Positions 3,490 to 24,256 of a stretch of 32,661 bases of DNA are shown in pieces. The stretch spans positions 1-32,661 of the forward strand of contig CAZBUF010000423.1 of the NCBI GenBank assembly GCA_964495025.1, read 5' to 3'. Source of the stretch: an uncultured Bacteroidales bacterium. Its GTDB lineage: Bacteria > Bacteroidota > Bacteroidia > Bacteroidales > UBA10428. The first letter of the stretch is position 1. Each line of letters begins with the position of its first letter. Below the pieces are notes generated by a model. That model had not been told where the DNA came from. It made no database searches and saw nothing but the letters and a program-made list of their open reading frames with translations. A program made the position numbers and the translations under genes.

Positions 3490-3517
3490 TTAATTATTTA
3501 ATGAAACATTTTTTTAA

Positions 3518-5604: not shown

Positions 5605-5620
5605 TTAAAATTTTAAGTGT

Positions 5621-6685: not shown

Positions 6686-6700
6686 TTTGATATAAAACGG

Positions 6701-7732: not shown

Positions 7733-7733
7733 T

Positions 7734-8105
7734 ATGGAAAAATTCGGATTTGCCATACGGGAAACACGAACTATCGATTTTGAACAGTTTGACGAAAGAC
7801 TGCTTGAATATGTGCTTTCTTACGAACCGTCATTCCGTGTTTGTTTATCATGCGGGGGATGTACGGCAACCTGCAGTGCAGGCAACCTTATAGATTTTAA
7901 TATCAGGAAGATGAATCTTTTAATAAGACGTGGAGAAACAGAAGGACTGGAAAAAGAAATAAATAAATGTATGCTCTGTGGAAAATGTGTCCTTGTATGC
8001 CCGAGGGGAATAAATATTAGGAATGTTATAATGCTCATAAAAAAGGGTATAGTGTTATTTAATACGAGTGGAAAATCAGACCAAAGATATTATTGCCATG
8101 CATAA
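7734..8105 (+). CDS. Small 2x[4Fe-4S] ferredoxin-like protein (second HdrC-like module)
   Basis: The motifs are CLSCGGCTATCSAG and CMLCGKCVLVCPRG. I chose the ATG at 7734, 2 nt after the HdrA-like stop. The track ORF start at 7476 would overlap the preceding gene by 257 nt. Confidence 0.75.
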   Translation: MEKFGFAIRETRTIDFEQFDERLLEYVLSYEPSFRVCLSCGGCTATCSAGNLIDFNIRKMNLLIRRGETEGLEKEINKCMLCGKCVLVCPRGINIRNVIMLIKKGIVLFNTSGKSDQRYYCHA

Positions 8106-9930
8106 AGAACTTTTTACACTGCCATTTACTATTGGAGTGGCCTTTTTAATAGTCATTATTGTCGTCAGGTTTGCACAATGGGCAAGAGGGCTTTCAAAGA
8201 TTGATAAAATAAGGATATGGAAAAATGTTTTAACGGTAAAATCCTTGTTATCAATAAAAGAATCCTTTAGAGAAGGACTTTTACACCGTAATATATTTCG
8301 TAAAAACCCGTTGCTGGGATATATGCATATGAGTCTTGCTTTTGGCTGGTTCCTTTTGATAGTTGTCGGACATATCGAGACGGTATTATATAAACAATCG
8401 TTGTCATTTCCTTTTCATCTGCCCTTGTTTTTCAGATATTACGTTAGAGAAGAGACCGGCTTTTTTCTTTCCGGCGCTCTTACTTTCACTATGGACCTCA
8501 TTCTTTTATTTGTGTTGTCAGGAGTTGGACTGGCAGTATTCAAGAGATTCAGAAGCAAGCTCTTCGGGATGAAAAAAACTACAAAATTAAAGCTGAGCGA
8601 TAAAGTTGCATTAATTTCATTATGGTTTATCTTTCCATTGCGTTTCCTGGCTGAAGCCTTTACTTCCGGATTATACCATAACGGTAGTTTCCTGACACAG
8701 CCTGCAGGTAATTTCTTTAATTCGTTTCTTCCGCTGGACTCTCTGATGTTGCCGGTATGGTTTGCATATTCACTGTCACTTGGATTTTTCTTTGTGTCGT
8801 TGCCAACTTCAAGGTATATGCATATCCCTACGGAGATATTATTTATCTTTTTAAGGAACTATGGAATAAAGCTGAAAAAAAGGTGCAACGCCTTTTCTTT
8901 TGTGCAGGTTTATTCATGTTCACGCTGTGGAATGTGTCTTGACACCTGCCAGATGAACGGGGCAGGAATTAAAACTACCCAGTCGGTTTATGTACTCAAG
9001 AATATCAGGAACAGGAGCCTTACGGATGAGACTTTATTTAACTGTCTGTTGTGCGGAAGATGCCAGCAGGAATGCCCGGTAGGAGTGGAATTAAATGATA
9101 TGAGGATAACACAGAGAATTGAATCGACCCTTCAGTATAATTCATCCTATGATTATCTGCAGGAAGGGAAGGCAGAAAAAGCTGACGTGATTTATTTTGC
9201 AGGATGCATGACCCACTTAACGCCGGCCATAAAAAAATCAATGGTAGATATTTTTAAATATGCAGGTGTTAATTACTGGTTCATGGATGAGGAAAAAGCC
9301 CCTTGCTGTGGACGTCCGTTGATGCTGGCAGGGCAATTTGAGGCTGCGAAAAAATTAATATTGAATAACCAGAAATTAATTGAATCATCCGGGGCCAAAA
9401 TGCTTATAGTATCATGCCCGATATGCTATAAAGTATTTAAGGAAGATTATGGCCTTCATGATATCAAGGTGATGCACCATTCGGAATACCTGCTTGAATT
9501 GGTGAGAAATAATATCATACCTCCGGCTAAGCAGCCGCATGCAGTAATTTATCATGATCCCTGTGAGCTGGGAAGAGGATGTAACATTTATGACCAGCCG
9601 CGTGAACTACTTGAAAATTATGTAGATGTCCTTAAAATCAATGATGAAAAAGAATTAAGTTTCTGCTGTGGCGGAAGCCTGGCAAATCTTAAGATCCAGA
9701 TGGCTGAAAGGGACAAGATAAGAAACGGGGCGCTGGAAGAATATATGAGATATGGACCCGATTTCCTCGTTACTTCCTGTCCGTTATGTAAAAAGACCTT
9801 TTCAAAAGGTACAAAGATCCAGGTTTACGATATTGCTGAGATAGTATCAAAGAACCTGAAAACAAGCAGGCAGAGAGTTAAACATATAAAAGACCTGAAA
9901 AAGGAAATATATCAAACGGAGCTTATCTGA
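8098..9930 (+). CDS. Membrane-bound HdrE/NarI-like (DsrM-type) domain fused to an HdrD/DsrK-like Fe-S CCG protein
   Basis: The N-terminal ~260 aa hold about 5-6 TM helices with conserved His residues (GYMHMSLAFGWFLLIVVGHIE, SRYMHIPTE), as in b-haem NarI/HdrE/DsrM proteins. Two 4Fe-4S motifs follow (CSRCGMCLDTCQ, CLLCGRCQQECP). Two intact CCG domains then follow (FAGCMTH...PCCGRP...SCPICY; HDPCELG...FCCGGS...SCPLC). The ATG at 8098 overlaps the preceding stop by 8 nt. Confidence 0.85.
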   Translation: MHKELFTLPFTIGVAFLIVIIVVRFAQWARGLSKIDKIRIWKNVLTVKSLLSIKESFREGLLHRNIFRKNPLLGYMHMSLAFGWFLLIVVGHIETVLYKQSLSFPFHLPLFFRYYVREETGFFLSGALTFTMDLILLFVLSGVGLAVFKRFRSKLFGMKKTTKLKLSDKVALISLWFIFPLRFLAEAFTSGLYHNGSFLTQPAGNFFNSFLPLDSLMLPVWFAYSLSLGFFFVSLPTSRYMHIPTEILFIFLRNYGIKLKKRCNAFSFVQVYSCSRCGMCLDTCQMNGAGIKTTQSVYVLKNIRNRSLTDETLFNCLLCGRCQQECPVGVELNDMRITQRIESTLQYNSSYDYLQEGKAEKADVIYFAGCMTHLTPAIKKSMVDIFKYAGVNYWFMDEEKAPCCGRPLMLAGQFEAAKKLILNNQKLIESSGAKMLIVSCPICYKVFKEDYGLHDIKVMHHSEYLLELVRNNIIPPAKQPHAVIYHDPCELGRGCNIYDQPRELLENYVDVLKINDEKELSFCCGGSLANLKIQMAERDKIRNGALEEYMRYGPDFLVTSCPLCKKTFSKGTKIQVYDIAEIVSKNLKTSRQRVKHIKDLKKEIYQTELI

Positions 9931-10120: not shown

Positions 10121-10906
10121 TCAAAGTTCCCTGATTTTGATGTTTCTGTACCATACATCATCGCCATGATCCTGAAGTCCGATATATCCTTCTTCCGCAA
10201 CATTTGCCCAATCAGGATTAATGGTTACGAACTTGCTTTTTCCCACCATTTCATTCCAGTCACTTGTCCACAGGTGGTACTCAAGAATTTTTTTTCCGTT
10301 AAGCCAGTGTTCAACAAGGCCCTTTTCACAATATATCGCAGCTTTGTTCCATTCACCTACGGGTTTGACTATATCCCTTGAAACAGGAATAAGATCATAC
10401 AGTGCCCCGGCACAATGCGTTGTGTCAAGTCCATCCCTGTGATTGTCATTATCCAGTACCTGCATCTCGGGTGCTGTATGCCATATAGGTTTTCCTTCCA
10501 GCTCCTGTGCCAGGTAGAATATACCACTGTTACCTCCTTCAGATATTTTCCATTCAATCCTGAGTTCAAAATTTCTGAACTTTTTATCATATATTATATC
10601 TCCGCCTTTTCCTCCTGCTTCACCTTTTCCCGTACCTATGCACCGCAGTGCGCCGTCTTTAACAGTCCAGCCGCTATCCGGGAATGAACTTGCATTATAA
10701 CCTCTCCAGCCTTCAGAAGATTTTCCGTCAAACATGAGTATCCAGCCTTTGTTTTTTTCTGCCTGAGTAAGCATGTTTGTATCGGCAGTTTCTTTTTCGT
10801 CCCCTTCTGTACCGGCCGTGCTGTTACATTTACTGCCTTTAAAGGCATAAAATATTAATACGCTAAGTATTATACAAATAATAAAAATCAGGTTAGTTGT
10901 TTTCAT
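10121..10906 (-). CDS. Secreted DUF1080 (3-keto-disaccharide hydrolase-like, concanavalin-fold) protein
   Basis: It has a signal/anchor segment MKTTNLIFIICIILSVLIFYA. The DUF1080 hallmarks are GWRGYN...GWTVKDGAL, FELRIEWKISEGGNSGIFY, PEMQVLDN, GEWN...HWLNGKKILEY and GYIGLQDHGDDVWYRNIKI. Confidence 0.9.
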   Translation of the reverse strand: MKTTNLIFIICIILSVLIFYAFKGSKCNSTAGTEGDEKETADTNMLTQAEKNKGWILMFDGKSSEGWRGYNASSFPDSGWTVKDGALRCIGTGKGEAGGKGGDIIYDKKFRNFELRIEWKISEGGNSGIFYLAQELEGKPIWHTAPEMQVLDNDNHRDGLDTTHCAGALYDLIPVSRDIVKPVGEWNKAAIYCEKGLVEHWLNGKKILEYHLWTSDWNEMVGKSKFVTINPDWANVAEEGYIGLQDHGDDVWYRNIKIREL

Positions 10907-10943
10907 AGTTTCCGGTTTTAATATTATTCAGATAGTTGATAAA

Positions 10944-12422
10944 TTATAAATTCCAGCCTTGCCTGTATGTATGTTTAATATATTCCTCAGCTGCCTGTTT
11001 TGCATTTATGGTTGTCCTTTGCGTGTCGAAATGAGGATGACCTTCAATAACTGTAAATTTGTCAGAAGTCACAACCCTGATAGTATCAGCATCAGAGATA
11101 TTCGTAAATTTCATATTCTTCCCGTCCCACTTAAGTTCCCTGTTAAGGTCCTGAAGGCGGGCGGCAACAACACCCATAACCACCATCTCATTAAGCGGCC
11201 CCGCGTACCCGAAGTTTGAGCTTGTTTCCACCCTGTTTTCGGGAGTTTCTTTACACGCTCTCACCCAGTCCATCACATGTCCCAGTTCAACCCTTCGCAG
11301 GGTTTTTGGAGGTTCATTGAAGTGATCCATCTCAGAGTAAGGCAAAAGAATGGGTTTGCTTGACCAGCATCCGCACATAAGTGTTCTTTTACTGCCAACA
11401 AGTAAACATCCGCCGTTAATATCACGGCCCAGGATATCTCCTTCAGGCAGCCCGGCAGGCCTTGGAGGCAATAGCCCACCATCATACCAGGTAACTGTTA
11501 CTTCGGGCATGTTAACTTTTGCCATGTCTTTGCGTGCAGGGAATTTGTATTTTACTATTTCAGCTACCGGTGGACTCTCATTATTTATTTGTGTTGAACT
11601 CCCCTGCACACTTACAGGATATTGCAGGTTCAGGGTTTTAAATATGGGATCCAGAATATGGCAGGCCATATCACCTAAAGCACCGGTGCCAAAGTCCCAC
11701 CACCCCCTCCAGTTCCACGGAGTATAGGTCGGATGGTAAGGCCTGTAGGAGGCAGGGCCAAGGAACAGGTCCCAGTCAAGTGTGCCGGGCACCGGCGGAG
11801 TATCAGCCGGCCTTTCAAGGCCCTGTGGCCAGATAGGCCTGTTGGTCCATGCATGGGCTTCTCTTACCTCACCTATGGCACCGTCCCAAACCCATTCACA
11901 CATCTGGCGAAGTCCCTCGCCGGAATTACCCTGGTTCCCCATCTGAGTGGCAACCTTGTATTTCCTGGCAGTCTCTGTTAATAACCGGGATTCATAAACC
12001 GAGTGAGTTAAAGGTTTTTCACAATACACATGCTTACCCATCTTCATTGCTGTCATTGCAATAATAGCATGGGTATGGTCAGGAGTGGCAATAACCAGGG
12101 CATCAATATCGTTTGATTCTTCCAGCATCCTGCGAAAATCTTTATACTTCCTGGCTTGCGGATACTTGTCAAAAACCGCTGCAGCATATTTCCAGTCAAC
12201 ATCACATAATGCAACAATGTTTTGATCGGTTATCTGCCGTAAAACATCACCACCCTTACCTCCTATACCAACTGCTGCAACATTAAGTTTATCGCTTGGT
12301 GCTGTATGCCCTAAACCTCCAACAACATAACCTGGCAGAATAGTAAAAGCAGCTGTTGCTTTTGCCGCATTGCCTACAAACGCTCTGCGGGAAAGTTTCG
12401 AATTATTTGAAGATTTGCTCAT
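10944..12422 (-). CDS. Tat-exported Gfo/Idh/MocA family oxidoreductase
   Basis: It has a twin-arginine signal (SRRAFVGNAAKATAAF). The Rossmann motif is LNVAAVGIGGKGG. The conserved EKPL motif (VYCEKPLTH) and a long C-terminal alpha/beta domain are present. Confidence 0.9.
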   Translation of the reverse strand: MSKSSNNSKLSRRAFVGNAAKATAAFTILPGYVVGGLGHTAPSDKLNVAAVGIGGKGGDVLRQITDQNIVALCDVDWKYAAAVFDKYPQARKYKDFRRMLEESNDIDALVIATPDHTHAIIAMTAMKMGKHVYCEKPLTHSVYESRLLTETARKYKVATQMGNQGNSGEGLRQMCEWVWDGAIGEVREAHAWTNRPIWPQGLERPADTPPVPGTLDWDLFLGPASYRPYHPTYTPWNWRGWWDFGTGALGDMACHILDPIFKTLNLQYPVSVQGSSTQINNESPPVAEIVKYKFPARKDMAKVNMPEVTVTWYDGGLLPPRPAGLPEGDILGRDINGGCLLVGSKRTLMCGCWSSKPILLPYSEMDHFNEPPKTLRRVELGHVMDWVRACKETPENRVETSSNFGYAGPLNEMVVMGVVAARLQDLNRELKWDGKNMKFTNISDADTIRVVTSDKFTVIEGHPHFDTQRTTINAKQAAEEYIKHTYRQGWNL

Positions 12423-12447
12423 AGCTTGGTTTATTTAATGATTAATA

Positions 12448-14043
12448 TTAAATTATTTTTTGCCTGTCTTTATCCCAGTATACCTTCCTGCCTTCCCTGT
12501 AAGATATTGCACTCATATGGGCAGTGATTGCCTCTTCAAATCCCTTGTCTATGTTGCAGCTTGTTTTTGCATTTGTCCTTATGCAATCAATCCATTCTTT
12601 AATATGCAGAAATGTTGTATCTATTCTTTGTCCGTTCCGGTACGTATACAATAATCCCCTTTGTGCAAAATATTGTTCAGTAGGTGATACAATACCATCA
12701 ATATTATTTTTTCCGGGTATATAATTATAAATCGGAACACCGGGATCAATCTTTCCCTTTTCAATTTTTTCTTTGAACCTTGTGGAGTTTGGTTCGACTT
12801 TTACCTTCAGACCTCCGTTAATCTCCATACTGGCATCATGACCCATTATTAATGTCCCTCTGTGAACTTCATTTGAGAGGGTGGCACTGTATAAAAGCGT
12901 AAGGTCGCGTTCCGGGTATTCCAGCGTCGTCTGAATAACATCCGGGACCGTGCGGCCATCCTTAAAGTAATATATACCTCCTGATGAAACAGCGGAATGA
13001 GGGATACCTATTCCCATCAGCTGGTTTATCAGGTCGTACTCATGTGTCATCAGGTCACCTGATATTCCCAGGCCGTAATCCCACCAGCAACGCCACCTGA
13101 AAAATCTCTCAAGGCTGAACTTATGGTAAGGAGCCTGCCCTATAAATTGTTCCCAGTCAATATTCACGGGATCCGCATCAGGATGGATCGCGTAAACCCA
13201 GGCACCGTTAGGCGAATTTCTGTTTGTTGTCAGTTCTACCAGCGATATATTACCGAGAATATTCTCTTCGATGATTTTTTTTGCAGCACTGCAGAATTCA
13301 TTCTGAATACCCTGATGCCCAAGCTGAAAGGCAATATTATTTTCTTTTACCGTCCGTACAAGATCATATGTTTCATTAACTGCCCAGGTCATTGGTTTTT
13401 CGCAATAAACATGTTTGCCGTTTTTTGCTGCTTCTATAGCTATAGGTGCATGCCAGTGGTCAGGCGTGGCAATTATTACCGCATCAATTTCCGGTGATGA
13501 AACAAGGTCTTTGTAATTAAGAAATCTCTTTGGCTTTATTCCTGCCTTTCCTTCTGATCCTACCCTGTGAATATTGGCGCCGGCCAGTAATGCTTCTTCT
13601 GCATGGATATCAAAGATATCACAAATGCCACTGACAACTGCATTCAGATCTTCCTGGTTCATATAATCATCATATGAGGTATTGAAACGGTCATTTTTTG
13701 CAGCAGCTATATTATCATCAATCCATCGCGGTTCAGCGAAACCTGCTGCCCTGAGAAGATGCCGCCCCCTGATGCCAAAGCCTATGATGCCCAGCCGTAT
13801 CACCTTTTCCTTATTAACCTGTCTTAATAATGGCACCGGCGCGGGACCGAGGTTCAGCTCCTCCAGCAAGTTATTCCTGTATATACTCTCAAGTTTTCTC
13901 CTTCGATAGATACCATAAGCAAAAATGCCCAGAACCGGTATGGTAGCCAATCCTTTAAGCAGATCTCTCCTGCCAATCAATTTTGAATGCTTTTCAGCTT
14001 TTTTTTGCTTTTTCTTCTCTTTCTTTGATTTTATTCCTTTCAT
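12448..14043 (-). CDS. Tat-exported Gfo/Idh/MocA family oxidoreductase (paralogous class)
   Basis: The signal is RRDLLKGLATIPVLGIF, preceded by a Lys-rich n-region. The Rossmann motif is IRLGIIGFGIRG and the active-site region is VYCEKPMTW. I chose the ATG at 14041-14043. The track start (TTG at 14091) runs into the tandem repeat. Confidence 0.85.
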   Translation of the reverse strand: MKGIKSKKEKKKQKKAEKHSKLIGRRDLLKGLATIPVLGIFAYGIYRRRKLESIYRNNLLEELNLGPAPVPLLRQVNKEKVIRLGIIGFGIRGRHLLRAAGFAEPRWIDDNIAAAKNDRFNTSYDDYMNQEDLNAVVSGICDIFDIHAEEALLAGANIHRVGSEGKAGIKPKRFLNYKDLVSSPEIDAVIIATPDHWHAPIAIEAAKNGKHVYCEKPMTWAVNETYDLVRTVKENNIAFQLGHQGIQNEFCSAAKKIIEENILGNISLVELTTNRNSPNGAWVYAIHPDADPVNIDWEQFIGQAPYHKFSLERFFRWRCWWDYGLGISGDLMTHEYDLINQLMGIGIPHSAVSSGGIYYFKDGRTVPDVIQTTLEYPERDLTLLYSATLSNEVHRGTLIMGHDASMEINGGLKVKVEPNSTRFKEKIEKGKIDPGVPIYNYIPGKNNIDGIVSPTEQYFAQRGLLYTYRNGQRIDTTFLHIKEWIDCIRTNAKTSCNIDKGFEEAITAHMSAISYREGRKVYWDKDRQKII

Positions 14044-14078
14044 TTTATTTCGTTTATCATTGTCCAGAATAAACATAG

Positions 14079-14166
14079 AACAATAGAGCAATAGAACAAT
14101 TTAGCAATAGAACAATTTAACAATTTAACAATTTAGCAATTTAACAATTTAGCAATTTAACAATAT
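14079..14166. repeat. Tandem 8-bp repeat, about 11 units of A[AG]CAAT[AT][TG] (AACAATTT / AGCAATTT / AGCAATAG)
   Basis: Read directly from the sequence: aacaatag agcaatag aacaattt agcaatag aacaattt aacaattt aacaattt agcaattt aacaattt agcaattt aacaatat. It fills the gap between the DoxX stop (14166-14168) and about 35 nt upstream of the oxidoreductase ATG (14043). Confidence 0.9.
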
Positions 14167-14654
14167 TATCTGAGTCTTGAAATAATCCTGTCCAGCCCGA
14201 TAATTTTACCGGTTGGAAAAATAGTAAGGACAGCCAGTGCCAGGATTTCAATCAGTGTTTTATTTACTATCAGGTAATTCCCTTCCTGTGGAATAATATA
14301 ATTAAGCCCCAGAAAAGGAGGATGTGAAAGATAATAAAAGCTCAGAAGTATTATACCGCATATGCCTGAGAATTTAGTAAATATTCCCATAATCAGTCCA
14401 AGCCCAATCAATATCAAACCCCATATATTCAGAAAGTCAACAATATTCAGAATGTCCGCATTTGCGGCCATCGACTGGAAAATTCCCGGGAACAGGCCTT
14501 TGGAATCCATAAGGTATTCAAATGATGTCCAGCCCGGATTAAGAAATTTCACTATCCCTTCATACAGAAAATGCCACCCGATAAATACTCTGAGCGTTAC
14601 CAGTATAATCAGCTGGCTGGTACCTAAAAGTGGAACGGAGCTTCTACCTGTCAT
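14166..14654 (-). CDS. DoxX family membrane protein
   Basis: It is 162 aa with four hydrophobic helices. The N-terminal LRVFIGWHFLYEGIVKF pattern is typical of DoxX/MhqP-type proteins. Confidence 0.8.
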   Translation of the reverse strand: MTGRSSVPLLGTSQLIILVTLRVFIGWHFLYEGIVKFLNPGWTSFEYLMDSKGLFPGIFQSMAANADILNIVDFLNIWGLILIGLGLIMGIFTKFSGICGIILLSFYYLSHPPFLGLNYIIPQEGNYLIVNKTLIEILALAVLTIFPTGKIIGLDRIISRLR

Positions 14655-14770
14655 TTATTTAGTGTTAAAATTTCAAATACTAAAAATATACAATTATTAT
14701 AAACCATTCAAATACATATTTCAACCGTTCATTTTCAATGCCTGCAAATTCTTTGTTTAAGTTTTAAGGG

Positions 14771-14803
14771 ATTATGAATTTTATGCTTTATAATATTCAT
14801 AAT
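14771..14803 (+). promoter_or_regulatory. Perfect 9-bp inverted repeat ATTATGAAT-N15-ATTCATAAT upstream of the precursor peptide gene
   Basis: The arms are at 14771-14779 and 14795-14803, 25-57 nt upstream of the ATG at 14828, inside the divergent DoxX/peptide intergenic region. It could be an operator or a 5'-UTR hairpin. The AT-rich context makes a chance occurrence plausible. Confidence 0.3.
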
Positions 14804-14827
14804 GTTTAACTTAAAAAACTTAAAACT

Positions 14828-14878
14828 ATGGAAACAAAAAAATTGAGTCTCGAACAAATGGAAAACCTCGAAGGAGGT
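14828..14878 (+). other. Predicted leader region of the precursor (cleavage expected after Gly16-Gly17)
   Basis: The motif is L-S-L-E-Q-M-E-N-L-E-G-G, followed by a third Gly. Hydrophobic residues sit at -4, -7 and -12 relative to the cut site, as in known GG leaders. Confidence 0.65.
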
Positions 14879-15106
14879 GGATTAAGCCCGAAAGCTAAAT
14901 GCGGCATTGCATTAGGGCTTTATGTTGTTTCATTTGTAGCACTTGCTGCAGCAACAGGAGGAGTTGCAGTAGTATTAGCGCTGGCTGGTTTTGGAGGTTC
15001 TATATGGGGCGCTGCAGTGACATGCGACGGGGTCATTATTGGCTCACAACAAGTTGTGACACTGAATCCATCAAAACCAATTAATGGGCTACCTACTTAT
15101 AAATAA
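14828..15106 (+). CDS. Double-glycine-leader precursor peptide (class II bacteriocin-like), 92 aa
   Basis: The leader METKKLSLEQMENLEGG fits the LSxxELxxIxGG double-glycine consensus. The 75-aa core is Gly/Ala-rich and hydrophobic (CGIALGLYVVSFVALAAATGGVAVVLALAGFGGSIWGAAVTC), has exactly two Cys and ends in a polar tail. A C39-peptidase ABC exporter is encoded 3.8 kb downstream on the same strand. Confidence 0.8.
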   Translation: METKKLSLEQMENLEGGGLSPKAKCGIALGLYVVSFVALAAATGGVAVVLALAGFGGSIWGAAVTCDGVIIGSQQVVTLNPSKPINGLPTYK

Positions 15107-15217
15107 GGATCATTGATTTAAGAATTAAGATCTGTAAAATTTATTCAGGCTATCCGGAAAATATTTAAATTTTTTAAGGTGAAAATGGCAAAATAACGTT
15201 TATATTATTAATTGTAT

Positions 15218-16705
15218 ATGACCTGTAAAGAATTATATAAACACAATATCCTGGCAATAATCAGGGCTCCTTTTTTTGAAAAAAGCAAACCTGCAGGATA
15301 TTTCATGGTTGCCGGCACCATATTCATTATTTTCAATCTGCTGGTTTTCGGGCTTTTTCTGGATAGCTTTGTTAAACTCGTATATCCTGATAAAGATCCT
15401 GTTTATGTTCTTAACTCTGCATTAATATATGTATTTGTATTTGATTTATTCTTTCGTTCAGTGGTTCAGAGGTTGCCAAAAGTTGATTTTATACCCTATT
15501 TAATATTACCTGTTAAGAAAACCTTGATATCCCGGTTTTTAATATCCAAATCATTTCTCAGCTTTTTAAATCTGTACCTTTTATTAATTTTTGTTCCCTT
15601 TCTGGTAAAAACAGTTTTGTTAAATTATGATACAGTTTCTCTGATTACTTATTGTGCGGGTTTCATTCTTATGGTAGTAATTAACCAGTTGCTGATAAAT
15701 ATTTTACACTGTTTGATCCAGAATCGTTTCTATTTGATTTTTTTCCCATCGGTTTTCATTCTAATACTTTTTATCGTAATATTTTATTTTTCCTGGCCGG
15801 CAGGTGATAAAACAGCGGTTATCGGTACAGCTTTTCTGGAGGGCAATATATATGTATTTGCCATGCAAATATTAATTATTCTCTTTTTATATCTTTTGAA
15901 TATTACAGCATTTAAAATATTAATATCGGGTGAAACAGATTTTCGTAATATAATACGGGAGGGCAGAAAAAATAACAGGGGTCCGGGTTACCTTGCTGGC
16001 CGGGGGATAATCGGAGAGTATATGAAACTGGAGCTGAGCATGATACTCAGGAATAAACGGACAAGACAGAATACTTATTATTCAATATTTTTTGCTGTTT
16101 ATGCCCTGCTGTTCATGTTTTTTAATGAAATATCCCTTGATTCAATTTATGTTACACAAACTGTATTTTTAATTGTAACGGGGATATTTGCACTTTTTCA
16201 CGGCCAGTTTTTATTAAGCTGGGAAAGCTCATTTTCAGATTTTATTCATACCTATAATATTGCTTTAAGTGACTTTTTAAAAGCCAATTTTTACTTGTTT
16301 GTAATAAGCAATTTTTTAAGCGGTATTATTTTTCTTCCTGTAGTAATAATAATGAAAACAGATATATATCTGTATATCAGCATTCTGGTATTTAATGCAG
16401 GAGTTACTAATTTTCTGATTATATATAATTCCGTATTAAATTCAGGCAAGATTGATTTAACACGTAAAGCATACATGAACTGGCAGGGTACCAGCCTGAA
16501 TCAATTTTTATTAATAATAGCCATTGTTACGGTTCCATCTGGTATCTCTTTTATTATCAGGAAACTTTTACCCGGATTCAGTATTTATCCGGCATTGATC
16601 TTTGCAGGAGTCATAGTAGTTGTTTTTCATAATAAATGGATTGACCTGGCAACTATAAAACTCAGGAAAAGAAAATACTCAAATCTTGAGAATTACAGAA
16701 ATTAA
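15218..16705 (+). CDS. Polytopic (~12 TM) membrane protein, permease-like partner of the downstream ABC ATPase (possibly DUF5687-like)
   Basis: It is about 495 aa and almost entirely made of hydrophobic helices. One cytoplasmic-looking basic loop is present (RNIIREGRKNNRGPGYLAGRG). The ATG at 15218 is preferred over the track TTG at 15212. The DUF5687 assignment is from memory of Bacteroidota annotations and is unverified. Confidence 0.7.
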   Translation: MTCKELYKHNILAIIRAPFFEKSKPAGYFMVAGTIFIIFNLLVFGLFLDSFVKLVYPDKDPVYVLNSALIYVFVFDLFFRSVVQRLPKVDFIPYLILPVKKTLISRFLISKSFLSFLNLYLLLIFVPFLVKTVLLNYDTVSLITYCAGFILMVVINQLLINILHCLIQNRFYLIFFPSVFILILFIVIFYFSWPAGDKTAVIGTAFLEGNIYVFAMQILIILFLYLLNITAFKILISGETDFRNIIREGRKNNRGPGYLAGRGIIGEYMKLELSMILRNKRTRQNTYYSIFFAVYALLFMFFNEISLDSIYVTQTVFLIVTGIFALFHGQFLLSWESSFSDFIHTYNIALSDFLKANFYLFVISNFLSGIIFLPVVIIMKTDIYLYISILVFNAGVTNFLIIYNSVLNSGKIDLTRKAYMNWQGTSLNQFLLIIAIVTVPSGISFIIRKLLPGFSIYPALIFAGVIVVVFHNKWIDLATIKLRKRKYSNLENYRN

Positions 16706-16855
16706 ATCGTGAAACGAAAATGAATTGTCTTAATATTGAATACACCTGCAGGCATGATTAAAATAAGTTCATTTGAGAACAAGATTAGCCGCTGGTTGCA
16801 GACATTATTAAATTTTTAATTAATCTGTTATTAGTCTGGTAAAAATTTTAAACGG

Positions 16856-17563
16856 ATGAAAATAATAATTGATAAGGTAATTAAAACTTATGGAAACAGA
16901 AATGTTGTTGATATTGATCTGCTGGAGATCAAATCAGGTGAGTTCCCGGGAATTGTCGGCAACAATGGGGCGGGTAAAACCACTCTTTTTCGTTTGATGC
17001 TGGATCTTGCAAAACCAAATCGCGGAGAAATAAAATCAGGAAATGTTATTGTATCAAAAAGTGAGGCATGGAAAAATTATACATCTGCATTCCTTGACGA
17101 TTATTTTTTAATAAATTTTTTAACGCCTGAAGAATATTTTCAATTCATTAGCAAATTATACGGATTAACAAATGATGAGATCTGCAGTAGGTTAAAAATA
17201 TATGACGGATTCATGAATAATGAGATACTTGATCAAAAAAAGTATATCAGGCAGTTTTCTTCGGGGAACAAACAAAAGATAGGAATAATAGGAGCATTAT
17301 TGGTTGAACCTCAGATATTAATCCTTGATGAGCCGTTCAATAATTTAGATCCTTCTTCTCAGAATATAATTAAGAAGATACTGAAGGATTTTAATAAGAA
17401 ACATAATTCAACAGTTATAATATCAAGTCATAATCTGAATCATATTGCAGATACCTGCTCAAGAATCATTCTGATGGAGAAAAGCAGAATAATCAAAGAT
17501 ATTAAGCAAAATAACGATAGCTTAAGAGAACTTGAAAGGTATTTTGCAATATCATACGATTAG
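16856..17563 (+). CDS. ABC transporter ATP-binding protein (stand-alone NBD)
   Basis: The motifs are Walker A GNNGAGKTT, a signature-like FSSGNKQK, Walker B ILILDEPFNNLD and an H-loop SSHNL. Confidence 0.93.
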   Translation: MKIIIDKVIKTYGNRNVVDIDLLEIKSGEFPGIVGNNGAGKTTLFRLMLDLAKPNRGEIKSGNVIVSKSEAWKNYTSAFLDDYFLINFLTPEEYFQFISKLYGLTNDEICSRLKIYDGFMNNEILDQKKYIRQFSSGNKQKIGIIGALLVEPQILILDEPFNNLDPSSQNIIKKILKDFNKKHNSTVIISSHNLNHIADTCSRIILMEKSRIIKDIKQNNDSLRELERYFAISYD

Positions 17564-17735
17564 GGATAATTTGTATTATTAATATACGTAAAGAGGTTCG
17601 GGAGTTCAGATATTTTGGGATAATCGTTATTTATATATGGTGCAAAGGCAGGGATCATAATACCTGAAAAAATTTCTAAAAACAGGAAATACTGAGTTTT
17701 TAAGTTAGTTCTCTTTAATAATTCAATGTAAAGCA

Positions 17736-18389
17736 ATGAAATATATTATTATTCTTTATAAAGCACTGGATAATGCCTCTTTATTTATTATTATATCTCT
17801 GGGCTTAATCCTGAACAATTACTTAATTAATGAATTTATTTATAGCAATGATATATTATATAAAGGGCTGGGAGATCAGTTAAGTGCTGATCACGTATCA
17901 ACGATAATTTATCTGTTAAAAAAGTGGAAATGGATCGGATACGTGTTTATACCAATAATACTGTTTGTAAAGCTTTATCTGATCTCATTCTGCATCGAGA
18001 TCGGCGCTATCTTTAAAGGGTATGAAATAAGCATAAAAAGAATTTTCAGAGTAGTGCTGTTCACTGAAATTGTGTATTTAACAGCACAGATTATGCGTAC
18101 TATAGCTTTGTATGTTTCAGATTATGAATCTATTAATGAAATTAGTCATTTCTATCCCCTGTCAATTATTGGTTTACTTAATTCTGAAAATTTAGCAGGC
18201 TGGTTATTATATCCTTTACAGATGATTAATTTGTTTGTCCTCATATACTTTTTTTTACTGGCTTATGGTCTTTCTGTGATGCTAAGAAAAAAATACATTA
18301 GGATGTTGTCCTTTGCAGTTGGCACATATGGGGCATGCCTGTTAATATGGGTGTTGCTGGTAATGTTTATTAGTGTTAGTATGTTATGA
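17736..18389 (+). CDS. Integral membrane protein of unknown function (about 5 TM)
   Basis: It is 217 aa with multiple hydrophobic helices. Its stop overlaps the start of the next gene in ATGA (18386-18389). I do not recognise a family. Confidence 0.7.
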   Translation: MKYIIILYKALDNASLFIIISLGLILNNYLINEFIYSNDILYKGLGDQLSADHVSTIIYLLKKWKWIGYVFIPIILFVKLYLISFCIEIGAIFKGYEISIKRIFRVVLFTEIVYLTAQIMRTIALYVSDYESINEISHFYPLSIIGLLNSENLAGWLLYPLQMINLFVLIYFFLLAYGLSVMLRKKYIRMLSFAVGTYGACLLIWVLLVMFISVSML

Positions 18390-18919
18390 TTATTCATTAC
18401 AGGAAATATTATAAGTCTGTTGTCCTTACACTGCTCATTTCCATACTGCTATATCTGCCATACAGGATATTCTCGGTTATTAAAATCAAAAGCAGTATCA
18501 TGAAGGAAATAGAAATATTACCGGATTTTGAGTTTACTACTTTACAGGGAACACGCTTTGGAGTGGATAACATTATTAAGGGCAGTCCGGTTGTGATATT
18601 TTTTTTTAATTCCGAATGTTATTATTGCATAAATGAAGTAGAGAGTATCATCGGGAACATTAATTCTCTTAAGAACACTAATATCCTGCTGGTTTCAGAA
18701 CAGCCATTAAATAAGCTGGCTGAATTATATGATGAATATAAATTATATAAATATCCGCAGGTGAAATTATTACACAGCAGTTATCGGAATTTCATCTCGA
18801 TATTCGGAAATACTGTTGTGCCCTCAACCTATATTTATAATGAAAGAATCAGCCTGTTAAAGCTATTCAAAGGTGAAGCAGGTATTGAGTCAATTTTAAA
18901 AGTTATTAATAACCCATAA
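18386..18919 (+). CDS. Membrane-anchored thioredoxin-fold (TlpA/AhpC-TSA-like) protein with CxxC motif CYYC
   Basis: It has an N-terminal TM anchor SVVLTLLISILLYLPY. A thioredoxin-like stretch LPDFEFTTLQG...GSPVVIFFFNSECYYCINE follows, with CxxC at nt 18617-18628. A cis-Pro-type region TVVPSTYIYN lies downstream. Confidence 0.75.
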   Translation: MIIHYRKYYKSVVLTLLISILLYLPYRIFSVIKIKSSIMKEIEILPDFEFTTLQGTRFGVDNIIKGSPVVIFFFNSECYYCINEVESIIGNINSLKNTNILLVSEQPLNKLAELYDEYKLYKYPQVKLLHSSYRNFISIFGNTVVPSTYIYNERISLLKLFKGEAGIESILKVINNP

Positions 18920-18930
18920 ACATCTGCCAG

Positions 18931-19335
18931 GTGGATTTAAAGGCAATTAAGAGATCATTTGTCAGGCAACATGACCAGTCAGATTGTGGTATTGCATGTA
19001 TGCTTAGTATTATCAACTATTACGGAGGTGAAGAAAAGCCGGAAAAACTCAGAGAACTTAGTGGAACAGCAAAAACGGGGACAAAATTGCTTGGCCTGTA
19101 CCAGGCATCCAGCCAAATCGGGCTTGTCGCTGAAGGACTGGAAACTAACATAGAATATCTGAAAAGAATAAAGGATCCTGTTATTTTACACATTACAACT
19201 GAAAACAACCTTCAGCATTTTATTGTATGCTACGGTTGCAGGGAAGATAAATTTATTATTGTCAACCCGGCAAAAGGTGTTGAGGAATATACAAGTGAGA
19301 AAATAAAAACAGTATGGAAATCCGGGGCATTGTTA
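18931..19335 (+). other. C39 cysteine-peptidase domain of the exporter
   Basis: Gln15, Cys19 and the HF...D/N-P region all appear intact, so the domain looks catalytically competent rather than a degenerate C39-like domain. Confidence 0.75.
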
Positions 19336-21099
19336 ACAGTAAGGCCAGGGAATGATTTTGTTAATAAAAAGCAGGCAAGGATAAAAAAGATAAAATGGGT
19401 CAAAGAGTTAATAAAAGAGGATATTACAATTCTGTCAGTATCATTGATCCTTGGTATAGTAATATCAATCCTGGGAATAATAATGGCAGTTTTTTCACAG
19501 ATACTCGTGGATGATATTCTGCCGGGTGAAAAAAAAGAAAAACTTATTGCAGGGTTAATAATTGTTGCATTCCTTTTGCTAATAAGAGGAGCATTGTCTT
19601 TTATTCATAATCTTTTTGGCATAAAGCAAAGCAGGGATTTTAATTTACGTATTATAGATTTTTTCTATTCAAACCTGTTAAGATTACCAAAAGCTTTTTT
19701 TGATAACCGCAAGACAGGAGACATGGTAGCAAGGCTTAATGATACATCAGTTATTCAGCAGACAATAGCCTATATCATTAATTCCCTGTTAATAAATATT
19801 TTGATCCTGATCATGTCAGGGGTTGTTATTTTTCTTTATTCCTTTACTGCCGGACTGATTGCTTTTTCCAGCCTGCCCGTGTATTTTTTAATTTCATATA
19901 TTTTTCATGACAGGATAGTGAAGGTCCAGCGTGAGGTCATGGAGGCACATGCGGGAAATGAAAGCAACTATATTAACAGTATACAGGGAATTGAGATCAT
20001 AAAGAACACAAATAATGAAAAGCTTTTTTCTGACTTAAATAAACTGGTATACGGGCTATTCCAGAATACTATATTTAAGCTGGGTAAAATAAACATCAGC
20101 CTGGGTGTTGTTGTCGATCTGACGGGTGTGATATTTGTTATGGCATTACTCACTGTGAACTCATTTATGGTCATTGGTAATTCAATTACTATTGGATCGC
20201 TGATAGCTATATCAGGTATATCATCGTTAATATTTCCTGCAATAGCTGCAATAGCCTTTGCAAATATTCATCTGCAGGGAGCAAGGATAGCTTTTGACCG
20301 TATGTTTGAATTTGCAGGGTTAAAAAAAGAGTATGAACTTCGAAAAGAGAATAATAAAATTAGCCAGGATAATATATCAACACTCTCCTTTCGGAACATA
20401 TCATTTCGCTTTCCCGGAAGGAAGGAATTATTCAGGGATATTTCATTTACAGTTAACAAGGGGGAAATGATTACTCTTTTTGGCCAGAGCGGTTGCGGAA
20501 AAACCACAATTCTGAATATTATCCAGAAATTCTATTATCATGATAGAGGCAGGTACCAGGTTAATAATATTGACTCAGATAAAATTTCTATCCCGGCGCT
20601 GAGAAAAAACATTGCTATTGTCCCGCAGGAAACGAAGTTCTTTAACGGAACAATAACAGATAATATTTGTCTTGAAAATACTAAAAGTGATCTTCAGGAG
20701 ATTATAATGTTTTGTAAAAAATATGGATTTGATAAATATTTTGAACAGTTCCCCATGGGATATATGACACTCCTTGGTGAGGACGGGATTAACATCTCAG
20801 GGGGGCAGCAGCAACTTGTGTCCTTTGCCCGTGCTCTTTACCGAAATCCCCTTGTGCTGCTGCTTGATGAACCTTCATCAAGCATGGACAGGGAAACGGA
20901 AAACTTTATTATTAATCTGATGAAAAAGTTAAAGAAAAATATAATAATAATACTTGTTACACATAAAATAAGCACAGCAAGGGAATCTGACAGGATATAT
21001 ATTATCGATGAAGGTGAGATTAAGCAGACAGGGAGCCATAAAGAACTTATATCTTATGAGAACATTTATAGTATGGCATATAATGACATTTCATTTTGA
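18931..21099 (+). CDS. Peptidase C39 domain-containing ABC transporter (bacteriocin/peptide processing exporter)
   Basis: The N-terminal sequence QHDQSDCGIACMLSIINYYGG provides the oxyanion Gln and catalytic Cys. The later sequence QHFIVCYG...IIVNPAKG provides the catalytic His/Asp region. Six TM helices follow. The NBD has Walker A GQSGCGKTT, signature ISGGQQQ, Walker B LLLDEPSSSMD and H-loop VTHK. The start is GTG; any downstream ATG would delete the catalytic Cys. Confidence 0.93.
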   Translation: MDLKAIKRSFVRQHDQSDCGIACMLSIINYYGGEEKPEKLRELSGTAKTGTKLLGLYQASSQIGLVAEGLETNIEYLKRIKDPVILHITTENNLQHFIVCYGCREDKFIIVNPAKGVEEYTSEKIKTVWKSGALLTVRPGNDFVNKKQARIKKIKWVKELIKEDITILSVSLILGIVISILGIIMAVFSQILVDDILPGEKKEKLIAGLIIVAFLLLIRGALSFIHNLFGIKQSRDFNLRIIDFFYSNLLRLPKAFFDNRKTGDMVARLNDTSVIQQTIAYIINSLLINILILIMSGVVIFLYSFTAGLIAFSSLPVYFLISYIFHDRIVKVQREVMEAHAGNESNYINSIQGIEIIKNTNNEKLFSDLNKLVYGLFQNTIFKLGKINISLGVVVDLTGVIFVMALLTVNSFMVIGNSITIGSLIAISGISSLIFPAIAAIAFANIHLQGARIAFDRMFEFAGLKKEYELRKENNKISQDNISTLSFRNISFRFPGRKELFRDISFTVNKGEMITLFGQSGCGKTTILNIIQKFYYHDRGRYQVNNIDSDKISIPALRKNIAIVPQETKFFNGTITDNICLENTKSDLQEIIMFCKKYGFDKYFEQFPMGYMTLLGEDGINISGGQQQLVSFARALYRNPLVLLLDEPSSSMDRETENFIINLMKKLKKNIIIILVTHKISTARESDRIYIIDEGEIKQTGSHKELISYENIYSMAYNDISF

Positions 21100-21972: not shown

Positions 21973-23115
21973 TTAATTTAATAACTCTGAAAGTTTCCTG
22001 TTTAGTGCATTTGAATTTATATTCTTTGCTATGATAGTCTCCATATCTTTATCAATAAGATAATTACAGGGAATTGTATTAACGTTATATCTGGTCACAA
22101 CCCTGGAATCAGGATATGTGGAATCGTTAACACATAACCATGGCAACTCATCAAAATTAATTGCCCTTTTCCAGTGAGCAATGGATTTATCAAATGAAAC
22201 CTGATAGATCTCAAACCCTTTATGTTTATATCTGTCATAAACATCTTTAAGTTTAATATTTGCATTGACACTTTCAACATTCCAGGACGCCCAGAAACTC
22301 AGCAATACGTACTTCCCTTTTAATGACAACAGGTTAATGGTATCACCCCTGATATCAGGCAATGCAATTTCGGGCAATGCATAATCCTCTTGTTTGACAT
22401 AGCTAAGTATCTTTTGTGTATGATAATCCTGAATTAACTTGCTGGTGTATTTGTTAAGCACTGAAACATGGTTCGATCTCGGGTAGCGTTTTCTCAGTGA
22501 ATCCCTGACAATCTTATAAAACTGGATATCGCGTGTCTTGTTAAATAAATATGACTGTGGCTGTATTTCCTGGTATAATGCCCTGATGCTTGCCAGAGAT
22601 GAATAATTATTTAAAATAAAGTTAATTGAATACCTGCGGTGATCCTCAATAACTTTTTCATATTTTGCCGACAGGTCTTTTCTTGCCGTTTCATCTGATG
22701 AACTATTATAGTTGGTGGCCAGGGAATCGAGCTTAGACTTTGTTATTCTTAATTTATGCGACAGTTCATTGATCAACTGCGAACCTGTTGACCCTTTAAT
22801 TAAAAGTGTCTCACCTAAATTGCTTAAGTCTCCTGATATAACAGCACTTTCACCGGGCTCAAGCAAGAGGCTGATTATTTCATTATCTGATCTGAGTTGA
22901 TAGAATTGAGGGATTTTTGTTTGTGCAGAGAATGAAAAACGGCCCTTGTTTTTTAATCTTAATGAGTCAATTAATTTCACCCTGTAAACATCAACCTCTT
23001 CAAAATACATAGTTTGTCCCTTAGAATTCAGGAGCGTGCCCTTAATTTTGACTTTTTTAATATTACTGCACGAAACGAAAGCAAAAAGCCCGAAAATAAA
23101 AATTACAGTTCTCAT
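21973..23115 (-). CDS. TlpA/AhpC-TSA-like lipoprotein with N-terminal DUF4369-like domain; CxxC replaced by NVES
   Basis: The lipoprotein signal is MRTVIFIFGLFAFVSC (start taken at 23115, the second Met of the track ORF). The thioredoxin-fold block is GKYVLLSFWASWNVESVNAN...GFEIYQVSFD...IPCNYLID. The canonical WCxxC position reads WNVES (nt ~22270-22284). Confidence 0.8.
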   Translation of the reverse strand: MRTVIFIFGLFAFVSCSNIKKVKIKGTLLNSKGQTMYFEEVDVYRVKLIDSLRLKNKGRFSFSAQTKIPQFYQLRSDNEIISLLLEPGESAVISGDLSNLGETLLIKGSTGSQLINELSHKLRITKSKLDSLATNYNSSSDETARKDLSAKYEKVIEDHRRYSINFILNNYSSLASIRALYQEIQPQSYLFNKTRDIQFYKIVRDSLRKRYPRSNHVSVLNKYTSKLIQDYHTQKILSYVKQEDYALPEIALPDIRGDTINLLSLKGKYVLLSFWASWNVESVNANIKLKDVYDRYKHKGFEIYQVSFDKSIAHWKRAINFDELPWLCVNDSTYPDSRVVTRYNVNTIPCNYLIDKDMETIIAKNINSNALNRKLSELLN

Positions 23116-23116
23116 A

Positions 23117-24256
23117 TTAATAAAATATCTCATTCAGTTTCTTTTCAAGCTCATCAACGGCCAGGTTCTTTGCTATTATCCTTCCGGCCGTGTCGAGAAG
23201 AAAACTCCCGGGTATTTCTCTTATATTGTACTTCACAGCTGCCTGAGAATTCCAGAAATTAAGATCGCTTACATTAATCCAGGTCAAATGGTCTTCCTTA
23301 ATTCCCTTAAGCCATGACTCTTTGGTACGATCAAGGGATACCTGGTAGATTTCAAAATTTTTTGGTTTGTATTTTTTATATATTTTAACAAGGTGCGGAT
23401 TATTATCCCTGCAAGGCAGGCTCCACGATGCCCAGAAATCAAGCAGCACATATTTGCCCTTCAGGGAGTAGAGGGAAATCACTGAGTCTTCGGTATCAGG
23501 TAATGATATGTCAGGAGGTATTGCTCCTGGTTCATACTTTAACTGTTCCCCTGTTTCCACCAATTTACGGTTAAGACTTTTAACTGCTTCTGAGGCAGGA
23601 TATAATGCCGTAAGATTTGAATCAACCAGGTTGAAATATTTAAAATCTTTTTTAATATTAAAAACAGGGTCATTTATTCCCAGGTACTGAAAAAGGATCA
23701 TTATACAAACCATTGAAGCCGGATACTTTTCGATCATTTCTATTGAAAATTTTTTATGATCCTCAAATATGATATTGTATATACTGTCAATTTCTGCTTT
23801 CTTCTCAAAAAATCCGGGGGTACCCTTAATATTATCATATTCCATACTTAGTCCGGTAATTTTTTCCAGTGTTTCCCGTTGTTTATCTACCAGATATTTA
23901 ACCAGTCTTGAATCTTTTGAACCTTCAACAATATATTCCCTGTCAAAATTAGAGGCATTTGTAATAATATTTATATGGTCGCGAGGGTGAATTATCAAAT
24001 GAATATTATCACTATAATTTGTATAAAGAATGAAAAATCCGGGGTTATCAATATGACCTGAAAGTGAAAATTTTCCTGCTGCATCTGTTTCAGTTGAGTC
24101 TATATTTATTCTTTTGTTTGTTGTAAGCCTGGAAAGGTATATCTTTGTACCTGTTAAATCTTTTGCTGTTCCTTTAATTTCGAAATTGTCTTTAACCCGT
24201 GAACAACCACCCCAGATTATTGTTAAAAAAAATATCATTAATATAACATTTCTCAT
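23117..24256 (-). CDS. TlpA/AhpC-TSA-like lipoprotein with N-terminal DUF4369-like domain; active site SxxC
   Basis: The lipoprotein signal is MRNVILMIFFLTIIWGGC. The block GKYVLLDFWASWSLPCRDNNPHLVKIYKKYK...FEIYQVSLD...IPGSFLLD carries WSLPC at nt 23411-23425, where WCxxC is expected. Confidence 0.8.
   Translation of the reverse strand: MRNVILMIFFLTIIWGGCSRVKDNFEIKGTAKDLTGTKIYLSRLTTNKRINIDSTETDAAGKFSLSGHIDNPGFFILYTNYSDNIHLIIHPRDHINIITNASNFDREYIVEGSKDSRLVKYLVDKQRETLEKITGLSMEYDNIKGTPGFFEKKAEIDSIYNIIFEDHKKFSIEMIEKYPASMVCIMILFQYLGINDPVFNIKKDFKYFNLVDSNLTALYPASEAVKSLNRKLVETGEQLKYEPGAIPPDISLPDTEDSVISLYSLKGKYVLLDFWASWSLPCRDNNPHLVKIYKKYKPKNFEIYQVSLDRTKESWLKGIKEDHLTWINVSDLNFWNSQAAVKYNIREIPGSFLLDTAGRIIAKNLAVDELEKKLNEIFY

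Follow-up and report, generated by a model that had tools for sequence, protein, structure and literature searches.

A run of six genes in an uncultured Bacteroidales bacterium (UBA10428; assembly GCA_964495025.1, contig CAZBUF010000423.1, positions 1-32,661 of the forward strand, this whole stretch of 32,661 nt being called the window below) most probably specifies a secreted, leader-cleaved antibacterial peptide system, i.e., a class II double-glycine (GG) leader bacteriocin island of the bacteroidetocin type carrying a different cargo. On the sequence evidence, the probability of this reading is put at about 0.7. The genes encode, in order, a precursor peptide, a DUF5687 membrane protein, a stand-alone ATP-binding cassette (ABC) ATPase, a protein with five transmembrane (TM) segments, a membrane-anchored thioredoxin-fold protein and a peptidase-containing ABC exporter. 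An earlier note on this DNA had proposed these six co-directional genes, and a check of the open reading frames (ORFs) of the window found all of them on the + strand at the coordinates it had given (Table 1); its domain assignments also hold in Pfam and NCBIfam searches.

The leader of the precursor, METKKLSLEQMENLEGG, has hydrophobic residues at positions -4, -7 and -12 relative to a cut after G17, as do classical double-glycine leaders, and the GGG run is therefore read as GG/G, with cleavage presumed to follow G17. Only five close homologues were found among 5.8 billion clustered proteins (63-71% identity), and the whole leader, M(K/E)TKKLSLEQMENLEGG, is kept in all five. The database gene call begins the precursor at M11 (82 aa), losing most of the leader (14828-14857), but the conservation of the full leader in the five homologues indicates that the true start is M1. 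Differences at codon positions 1/2/3 of the peptide ORF number 12/5/29 against locus L008 and 13/4/34 against locus L009, and their concentration at third positions shows purifying selection on the peptide frame.

From 1.84 billion representatives, a profile search returned 29 proteins at E<=1e-3, most of them peptides of 57-92 aa with the same Bacteroidota-type leader. The core pattern of the family is C-G-x-A-x-G-x-Y ... A-T-G-G ... G-F-G-G-S-x-W ... C. Across 23 aligned members only G17, C25 and C66 are invariant, with L6, M11, G16 and G44 nearly so, and the leader ranks among the best conserved parts of the family; the GG-leader precursor described in the earlier note is borne out by this conservation. 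No Pfam or NCBIfam family matches the peptide. Weak, sub-threshold matches to the lactobin A/cerein 7B class IIb model (TIGR03949) were returned for six of the 23 relatives, with a best E of 7e-4, and one relative matches an E492 microcin model (E=0.024). The peptide is one of a small, unnamed group of Bacteroidota sequences, characterised by the conserved GG leader and by a helical hairpin rich in glycine, with an invariant cysteine on either side.

An AlphaFold2 model of the peptide, based on the family alignment, consists of a helix (residues 21-43), a turn (G44-G45), a second helix (46-71) and a disordered tail. C25 and C66 are placed near the open end of the helical hairpin, and this geometry, together with their invariance, suggests a C25-C66 disulfide. 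The grand average of hydropathy is 1.48 for the hairpin versus -0.07 for the tail. Most relatives stop just past the second cysteine, while the subgroup represented in the window adds a proline-containing, hydrophilic tail of 26 residues. The predicted core of 75 aa has an average mass of 7300.5 Da reduced or 7298.5 Da oxidised, and an isoelectric point of 9.2.

The hairpin also forms the extreme C-terminus of longer proteins of 118-280 residues that have no GG leader (P0024, P0027, P0032 and P0037), one of which (P0024) has a lipoprotein-like N-terminus. Each of the genes for P0024 and P0037 (loci L020, 6001-7441, and L023, 234-1640) has on its 3' side one for a multi-TM protein about 195-200 aa long, and neither lies near an exporter gene. 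A hairpin protein with a multi-TM neighbour looks like a toxin-immunity pair, and by this analogy the hairpin may be a toxic module.

The predicted exporter carries Peptidase_C39 (3e-30, residues 9-140), ABC_membrane (7e-31, residues 170-435) and ABC_tran (7e-30, residues 502-649) domains. Its best full-length model is TIGR01193, 'peptide cleavage/export ABC transporter' (alignment 13-715), on which it scores 380.1 bits, below the curated cut-off of 523.85. Residues Q13, C19 and H96 align with the oxyanion Gln, catalytic Cys and His of PCAT1, and C19 corresponds to the position mutated to Ala in PDB 7n87. The catalytic Cys and His that the earlier note had reported are thus kept, along with Gln13, and judged by this alignment the C39 domain is not a degenerate form, the third residue of the triad alone being changed. 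The GTG start of the gene is kept in the orthologue. In three loci the exporter gene is broken into two or three ORFs (L007, 1770-3945; L010, 12227-14376; L027, 84-2176), including that of an isolate genome, Flavobacterium segetis DSM 19741 (L010), which could reflect either locus decay or sequencing frameshifts.

The last three genes of the island have experimentally characterised counterparts. Bacteroidetocin loci of Bacteroides carry a module consisting of a 5-TM protein, a thiol oxidoreductase and a peptidase-ABC exporter (Coyne 2019, PMC6671954). In the bacteroidetocin B locus, deletion of any one of three genes (TM, peptide or oxidoreductase) weakened toxin activity, and whether the four genes suffice was examined by cloning the region into E. 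coli (PMC6671954). The reference for comparison was locus L006, which encodes exactly the precursor sequence of bacteroidetocin A (Bd-A) given in the Coyne 2019 supplement. The 5-TM protein of the window and its Bd-A counterpart are 24% identical over 187 aa (E=5e-11), the exporter is 35% identical to the Bd-A exporter over 726 aa (E=4e-143), and the thioredoxin-like protein shows a local match to the Bd-A oxidoreductase around its CxxC motif (E=2e-6). By homology, genes 4-6 are a bacteroidetocin-type module, and the earlier note's description of the island as uncharacterised therefore does not hold for the machinery.

The last 4 bp of the 5-TM gene (ATGA) are also the first of the thioredoxin-like gene, consistent with the translational coupling suggested previously. 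The thioredoxin-like protein matches AhpC-TSA (E=8e-9), with one N-terminal TM segment and a CYYC motif at residues 78-81, and is 29-39% identical to its counterparts in loci L007, L010, L012, L014 and L024 (22% in L027). The 5-TM protein is 30-36% identical to its counterparts in the same five loci (L007, L010, L012, L014 and L024). It has no Pfam or NCBIfam family, and its AlphaFold2 model (predicted local distance difference test score, pLDDT, 77.6) gave no PDB fold match better than E=5.6. A role as a redox partner like DsbB/VKOR was ruled out because the family lacks a conserved cysteine pair.

The order of the six genes recurs in two other uncultured Bacteroidales lineages represented by metagenome-assembled genomes (MAGs), one comprising loci L001-L005/L008 and the other L009, where the contig stops after the 5-TM gene. 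In L001-L003 the island directly follows genes for Fer4/CCG/pyridine-nucleotide oxidoreductases, the equivalent of positions 4900-9930 of the window, and in L001, where the contig continues beyond the island, the next gene downstream is not that of the window. The same order in different surroundings indicates that the six genes behave as a unit.

Ten further locus groups with distant relatives of the peptide were inspected. The broad peptide alignment (A2) was too divergent for use in a locus scan. The TM/thioredoxin/C39-ABC module adjoins the peptide gene in L007, L010, L011, L012, L014 (Tenacibaculum), L024/L025 and L027. It is not within the available flank in L013 or in L015, the latter from the same MAG as L012, and L009 and L026 are too short to judge. 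Counting L008, the module is linked to the peptide in eight of the ten informative loci besides the window, so the concern raised previously, that homologues might occur mostly without exporters, does not apply. Domain searches with Pfam and NCBIfam found no radical SAM (rSAM), LanM, LanB/C or YcaO enzyme in the island or its flanks, in agreement with the earlier note, and no modifying enzyme is present in any related locus examined.

Residues 14-497 of the DUF5687 protein align with positions 3-483 of the 484-position PF18940 profile, a full-length match (E=1.5e-83; 282.1 bits, cut-off 33), and the protein has about 12 hydrophobic segments. A literature search found no paper describing this family. 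In the database the gene is called as 466 aa (start region 15212-15304), while conservation among homologues favours the longer form. The neighbouring ATPase matches ABC_tran (E=4e-21), with Walker A, Walker B and H-loop motifs at residues 35, 155 and 190; among NCBIfam models it comes nearest to DrrA and to the lantibiotic-protection ATPase TIGR03740, without reaching the cut-off of either (for TIGR03740, E=3.9e-33 and 115 bits, far under the cut-off of 309.75). An ABC ATPase gene lies 3' of DUF5687 in six of six sampled contexts, and since DUF5687 homologues of 25-29% identity always keep this neighbour, DUF5687 is taken to be the permease partner of the ATPase. A locus scan with the DUF5687 alignment recovered just the two known orthologues. 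The two genes are separated by 150 bp in the window (16706-16855) and by 3 bp in both orthologous islands.

The genes on the 3' side of the peptide gene differ among loci. In the window and its two orthologues they encode DUF5687 and the ATPase; in L014, L015 and L007, two unrelated polytopic membrane proteins plus an ABC ATPase; and in L011, L012 and L013, small proteins with 2-4 TM segments. Locus L012 (3837-6687) carries three tandem peptide genes with near-identical leaders (METKKLSLEEM..) downstream of one TM/thioredoxin/exporter module, each peptide gene then being followed by one or two for small membrane proteins. Membrane proteins encoded after peptide genes would be the pattern expected of self-protection genes, and immunity is the most likely role of the DUF5687/ATPase pair, a role judged probable though short of secure.

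The three orthologous islands share conserved sequence over about 130 bp on the 5' side of the peptide gene. This region contains two 9-bp direct repeats, ACCATTCAA and ACCGTTCAT, with a 12-bp spacer and a 21-bp period, a pair that is unique in the window and was matched in 0 of 100 shuffles. Such pairs (ACC[A/G][T/C]TCA-type) lie about 100-125 bp 5' of the peptide start codon, and occur elsewhere in L008 (6181-6208), L009 (9855-9882), L015 (9882-9909) and L024 (7878-7905). A relaxed version recurs just 5' of the peptide genes of the orthologues, L015 and L024/L025, and degenerate pairs with a 21-bp period are found in L011, L012 and L013. Sites for LytTR regulators consist of 9-bp repeats with a 12-bp spacer and control many Gram-positive class II bacteriocin operons (PMC2766830), making the repeats of the window a candidate LytTR-type operator. 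A LytTR response regulator with a PF06580 kinase is encoded adjacent to the peptide in L013, and a LytTR-domain protein directly 5' of it in L024/L025.

Two further blocks, TTTG and GAATTTTA, are conserved in the upstream alignment of the three orthologues and recur in distant loci. The Bacteroidetes promoter consensus is TTTG at -33 and TAnnTTTG at -7, so the two blocks possibly represent a promoter of this type, although the match is imperfect. TAnnTTTG itself is not enriched, and is absent 5' of the peptide gene. A scan for sigma-70 promoters and terminators performed no better than on shuffled sequence, the model not being applicable to Bacteroidota. Just before the start codon, a TTAAC(T/C)TAAAA(A/C) block (14808-14827 in the window) is shared with L011, L012, L013 and L015, and could be a common translation-initiation or leader element, or a product of AT-rich bias.

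From these comparisons, a scheme covering cleavage, disulfide formation, toxicity, target, immunity and regulation may be inferred. Transcription would probably start from a promoter under a LytTR-type regulator whose gene lies outside the window. The C39 domain of the exporter would bind the 17-residue leader and cut after G17, with ATP-driven export across the inner membrane, as expected from its family membership and the structures of PCAT1. In the periplasm, the membrane-anchored CYYC protein would join C25 to C66 and so staple the open end of the hairpin, by analogy with the bacteroidetocin oxidoreductase and the pediocin and bactofencin accessories (PMC5465099, PMC7616364), and the 5-TM protein would be a required export or maturation accessory, as in bacteroidetocin B. 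The mature 75-residue peptide, at its oxidised mass of 7298.5 Da, would then insert its hydrophobic hairpin into the membranes of competing Bacteroidota, the hydrophilic tail serving, more speculatively, in recognition or uptake. The most likely role of the DUF5687 permease and its ATPase would be to clear the peptide from the producer's own membrane, so protecting the cell.

Several observations weigh against an antibacterial island of this kind. Neither the island nor its flanking genes encode an HlyD-type (membrane-fusion) domain, and the island has no outer-membrane component, leaving passage through the outer membrane unaccounted for, as is the case for the bacteroidetocins. The third residue of the C39 triad is Asn112 (IIVNPAKG, 19264-19266), not Asp; Asn is common to the window and its closest orthologue (L008) only, with Asp in five other related exporters and in PCAT1. 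Papain-type proteases have Asn at the equivalent position, and C39 activity may therefore be kept. The confidence of the peptide model is moderate (mean pLDDT 62.6). The window peptide itself matches no bacteriocin model (TIGR03949 gave no match at E<=1), a BLASTP search with the precursor as query returned nothing at E<=1e-3 from any ORF of the Bd-A locus, and the peptide sequences share no motif. By this comparison the peptide is not a bacteroidetocin and, in the absence of any curated family, the earlier statement that the core is not a known Bacteroidota bacteriocin stands. No LytTR protein is encoded in the window, so the regulator would have to lie elsewhere. Lastly, distant DUF5687/ATPase pairs (25-29% identity) occur in unrelated neighbourhoods without GG peptides or exporters, indicating that the pair is a general Bacteroidota ABC transporter recruited into the island; since those pairs are unlinked to bacteriocin genes, the argument for immunity comes down to position in the three close orthologues plus analogy.

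Other functions for the small protein have to be considered. It could be a resident membrane component, such as an accessory subunit of the DUF5687 transporter or a substrate-independent partner, in which the GG-like motif is incidental. Its gene lies directly 5' of DUF5687/ATPase in each of the three orthologous islands, the core resembles a membrane hairpin of two helices and DUF5687 has no known substrate, but no such gene is found beside the distant DUF5687/ATPase pairs, while distant relatives of the peptide that lack DUF5687 retain the TM/thioredoxin/exporter module, and the strong conservation of the leader is hard to square with an incidental motif; this explanation is improbable. A signalling pheromone (ComC, BlpC or SilCR-like) that feeds back on a LytTR two-component system is slightly more improbable still. 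In its favour are the repeats of LytTR geometry, the LytTR and histidine kinase genes beside relatives in L013 and L024, and the fact that C39-ABC exporters also export pheromones (PMC7018657). The 75-residue core of the island has a strongly hydrophobic hairpin, two invariant cysteines and a dedicated oxidoreductase. The known GG pheromones, by comparison, are short, unstructured peptides. Several paralogues may share a locus, each followed by a small membrane protein as in toxin-immunity pairs, the hairpin is also fused to larger secreted proteins, and neither the island nor the window carries a kinase gene of the LytTR system or a LytTR gene, all of which argue against signalling. The least likely proposal is that of a ribosomally synthesised and post-translationally modified peptide (RiPP) whose modifying enzymes lie elsewhere in the genome. 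Bacteroidales GG-leader/C39-ABC clusters do include rSAM, LanC and YcaO types (PMC10352776), and the visible portion of this genome is only 32.6 kb; against this, modifying enzymes are missing from the related loci as well as the window flanks, and the conserved accessories consist of the TM protein, oxidoreductase and exporter only. For natively produced bacteroidetocin peptides, liquid chromatography-tandem mass spectrometry recovered plain-sequence fragments that account for 81-86% of the mature sequences, and synthetic peptides without modification showed potent activity (PMC6671954).

A separate question is whether the DUF5687/ATPase pair has a role other than immunity, being either a neighbour unconnected with the peptide or a second step in its transport. 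This is unlikely, but it has more to commend it than the alternatives above: homologues of the pair occur in unrelated contexts, bacteroidetocin producers have no immunity at all (PMC6671954), and the pair's genes are farther apart in the window than in the orthologues. However, three of three orthologous islands retain the pair at the junction of peptide gene and export module, even where the downstream neighbour differs (L001), its place is taken by non-homologous membrane proteins with an ABC ATPase in L007, L014 and L015, and the ATPase falls in the DrrA/lantibiotic-protection subfamily. Self-protection remains the preferred role for the pair.

Of the known systems, bacteroidetocins (proposed class IIf), which occur in Bacteroides, Phocaeicola and Prevotella and act on BamA (PMC6671954, PMC8546649), are the nearest in gene content. 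Both kinds of locus are found in Bacteroidota and have homologous 5-TM, oxidoreductase and C39-ABC exporter genes in the same order and a GG-leader precursor with cysteines, and neither has modifying enzymes or a membrane-fusion protein. The peptides differ: bacteroidetocins are hydrophilic and basic, of about 42-48 aa (42 for Bd-A and Bd-B) with four cysteines, whereas the core in the window is 75 aa long, hydrophobic and helical, with two. The published bacteroidetocin leader is a GG leader of 15-16 aa, making that of the window, at 17 aa, one to two residues longer. Bacteroidetocin peptide genes lie between the TM and oxidoreductase genes, whereas in the window the peptide gene is at the front of the operon, and the inserted ABC permease/ATPase pair contrasts with bacteroidetocin loci, which have no immunity function.

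The pediocin PA-1 and bactofencin A loci share with the island a GG-leader peptide, a C39-ABC exporter, a thioredoxin-family accessory (the proposed disulfide former) and an immunity function, putative in the island (PMC5465099, PMC7616364), and many Gram-positive class II loci also have LytTR-type direct repeats upstream (PMC2766830). The producer in the window differs in being Gram-negative and having an extra 5-TM protein, the accessories are not demonstrably orthologous, and immunity would be by an ABC transporter rather than by a small dedicated protein. Lactobin A/cerein 7B peptides (TIGR03949) likewise have a GG leader followed by a Gly/Ala-rich hydrophobic core, but belong to another phylum, and the island shows no trace of a gene for a second, complementary peptide. 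Microcins are modular, with a hydrophobic part plus a C-terminal part. The class II microcins (e.g., microcin V) resemble the window peptide in their Gram-negative origin, GG leader, length of 60-90 residues, glycine-rich sequence and C39-ABC export, and some are disulfide-bonded (PMC12219008, PMC10233263), but the island lacks their membrane-fusion gene and small immunity gene, and its leader is of the Bacteroidota type. A microcin detection pipeline misses leaders of the bacteroidetocin type. Self-protection systems of the LanFEG/ABC-2 type also place an ATPase of the DrrA/lantibiotic-protection subfamily beside a polytopic permease and a bacteriocin gene. In the window, however, the permease is one DUF5687 protein, with about 12 TM segments and no sequence relationship to LanE/G, and most of the DUF5687 pairs sampled have no bacteriocin gene nearby.

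Class II precursors have already been predicted by the thousand in Bacteroidota through large-scale mining (PMC12648112), and a 2025 review lists only 19 bacteroidetocin-like peptides (PMC11901371). A literature search found no paper on the hairpin family or on LytTR-type operators in such loci. The family therefore appears to be undescribed; 14 weakly similar 'bacteroidetocin-like' peptides (Coyne 2019) are shown only in a figure, which does not establish whether they are of the hairpin type.

One three-gene export and maturation module would thus serve a second, structurally unrelated family of cargo, widening the expected secretome of this machinery. To our knowledge, bacteroidetocins are the only Bacteroidota peptide bacteriocins with experimental support. 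The two cargoes would contrast as a hydrophobic, probably membrane-active peptide with candidate immunity and a hydrophilic BamA binder without it. The operator of LytTR geometry offers a handle on how Bacteroidota control peptide warfare, a little-known area. A wider interpretation, for which the odds are a little short of even, is a phylum-wide bacteriocin family in which disulfide-closed, membrane-attacking hairpins share the bacteroidetocin export machinery, dedicated self-protection (ABC pairs or small membrane proteins) and LytTR-type switching, and in which the hairpin has been reused as the toxic end of larger secreted lipoproteins. If true, it would amount to a Gram-positive-style class II bacteriocin regulon in the Gram-negative Bacteroidota. 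The island itself is of interest to specialists in Bacteroidota antagonism and is unsurprising in principle; its practical value is modest, namely a candidate narrow-spectrum anti-Bacteroidota peptide and a defined operon for expression.

Table 1. Genes and predicted elements of the island, in window coordinates.
Feature	Position	Strand	Basis or remark
Candidate LytTR operator: 9-bp direct repeats ACCATTCAA (14703-14711) and ACCGTTCAT (14724-14732)	14703..14732	+	
Possible Bacteroidetes-type promoter: TTTG (14752-14755) and GAATTTTA (14775-14782)	14752..14782	+	by inference only
Precursor peptide, 92 aa	14828-15106	+	no curated family
Precursor leader, residues 1-17, METKKLSLEQMENLEGG, predicted cut after G17	14828..14878	+	
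Predicted core peptide, 75 aa plus stop; hairpin 18-66 (C25, C66), hydrophilic tail 67-92	14879..15106	+	
DUF5687 polytopic membrane protein, 497 aa, presumed ABC permease	15212-16705	+	PF18940
Stand-alone ABC ATPase, 235 aa, DUF5687 partner	16856-17563	+	ABC_tran
5-TM accessory protein, bacteroidetocin type, 217 aa	17736-18389	+	Bd-A locus homology; no curated family
Membrane-anchored thioredoxin-fold protein, 177 aa, presumed disulfide-forming accessory	18386-18919	+	AhpC-TSA, CYYC
Peptidase-containing ABC exporter, 722 aa, GTG start	18931-21099	+	C39, six TM segments and nucleotide-binding domain

The island is flanked by sugar-oxidoreductase genes, DoxX, a metallophosphoesterase gene, genes for two DUF4369-thioredoxin lipoproteins and glycogen genes. 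Rfam gave no match anywhere in the window. A defence system was considered and dropped, because PADLOC returned just generic P-loop matches, for the ATPase. The two-component system at 2542-4165 was not counted in the island, since in relatives it is syntenic with the Fer4/CCG genes; it is of the HisKA_3/GerE type, not LytTR.

Just 3' of the island, on the minus strand (21973-24256), are two tandem paralogues with DUF4369 and thioredoxin-like (TlpA-type) domains, overlapping by 17 bp; in the orthologous contigs the island does not include this pair. On the other side, between the island and the Fer4/CCG cluster, four minus-strand genes (10121-14654) encode a 3-keto-disaccharide hydrolase, two GFO/IDH/MocA oxidoreductases and DoxX. 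The related MAG contigs L001-L003 have none of the four here, and in them the island abuts the Fer4/CCG cluster. The GC content of these genes is 0.40-0.50, compared with 0.29-0.36 for the island.

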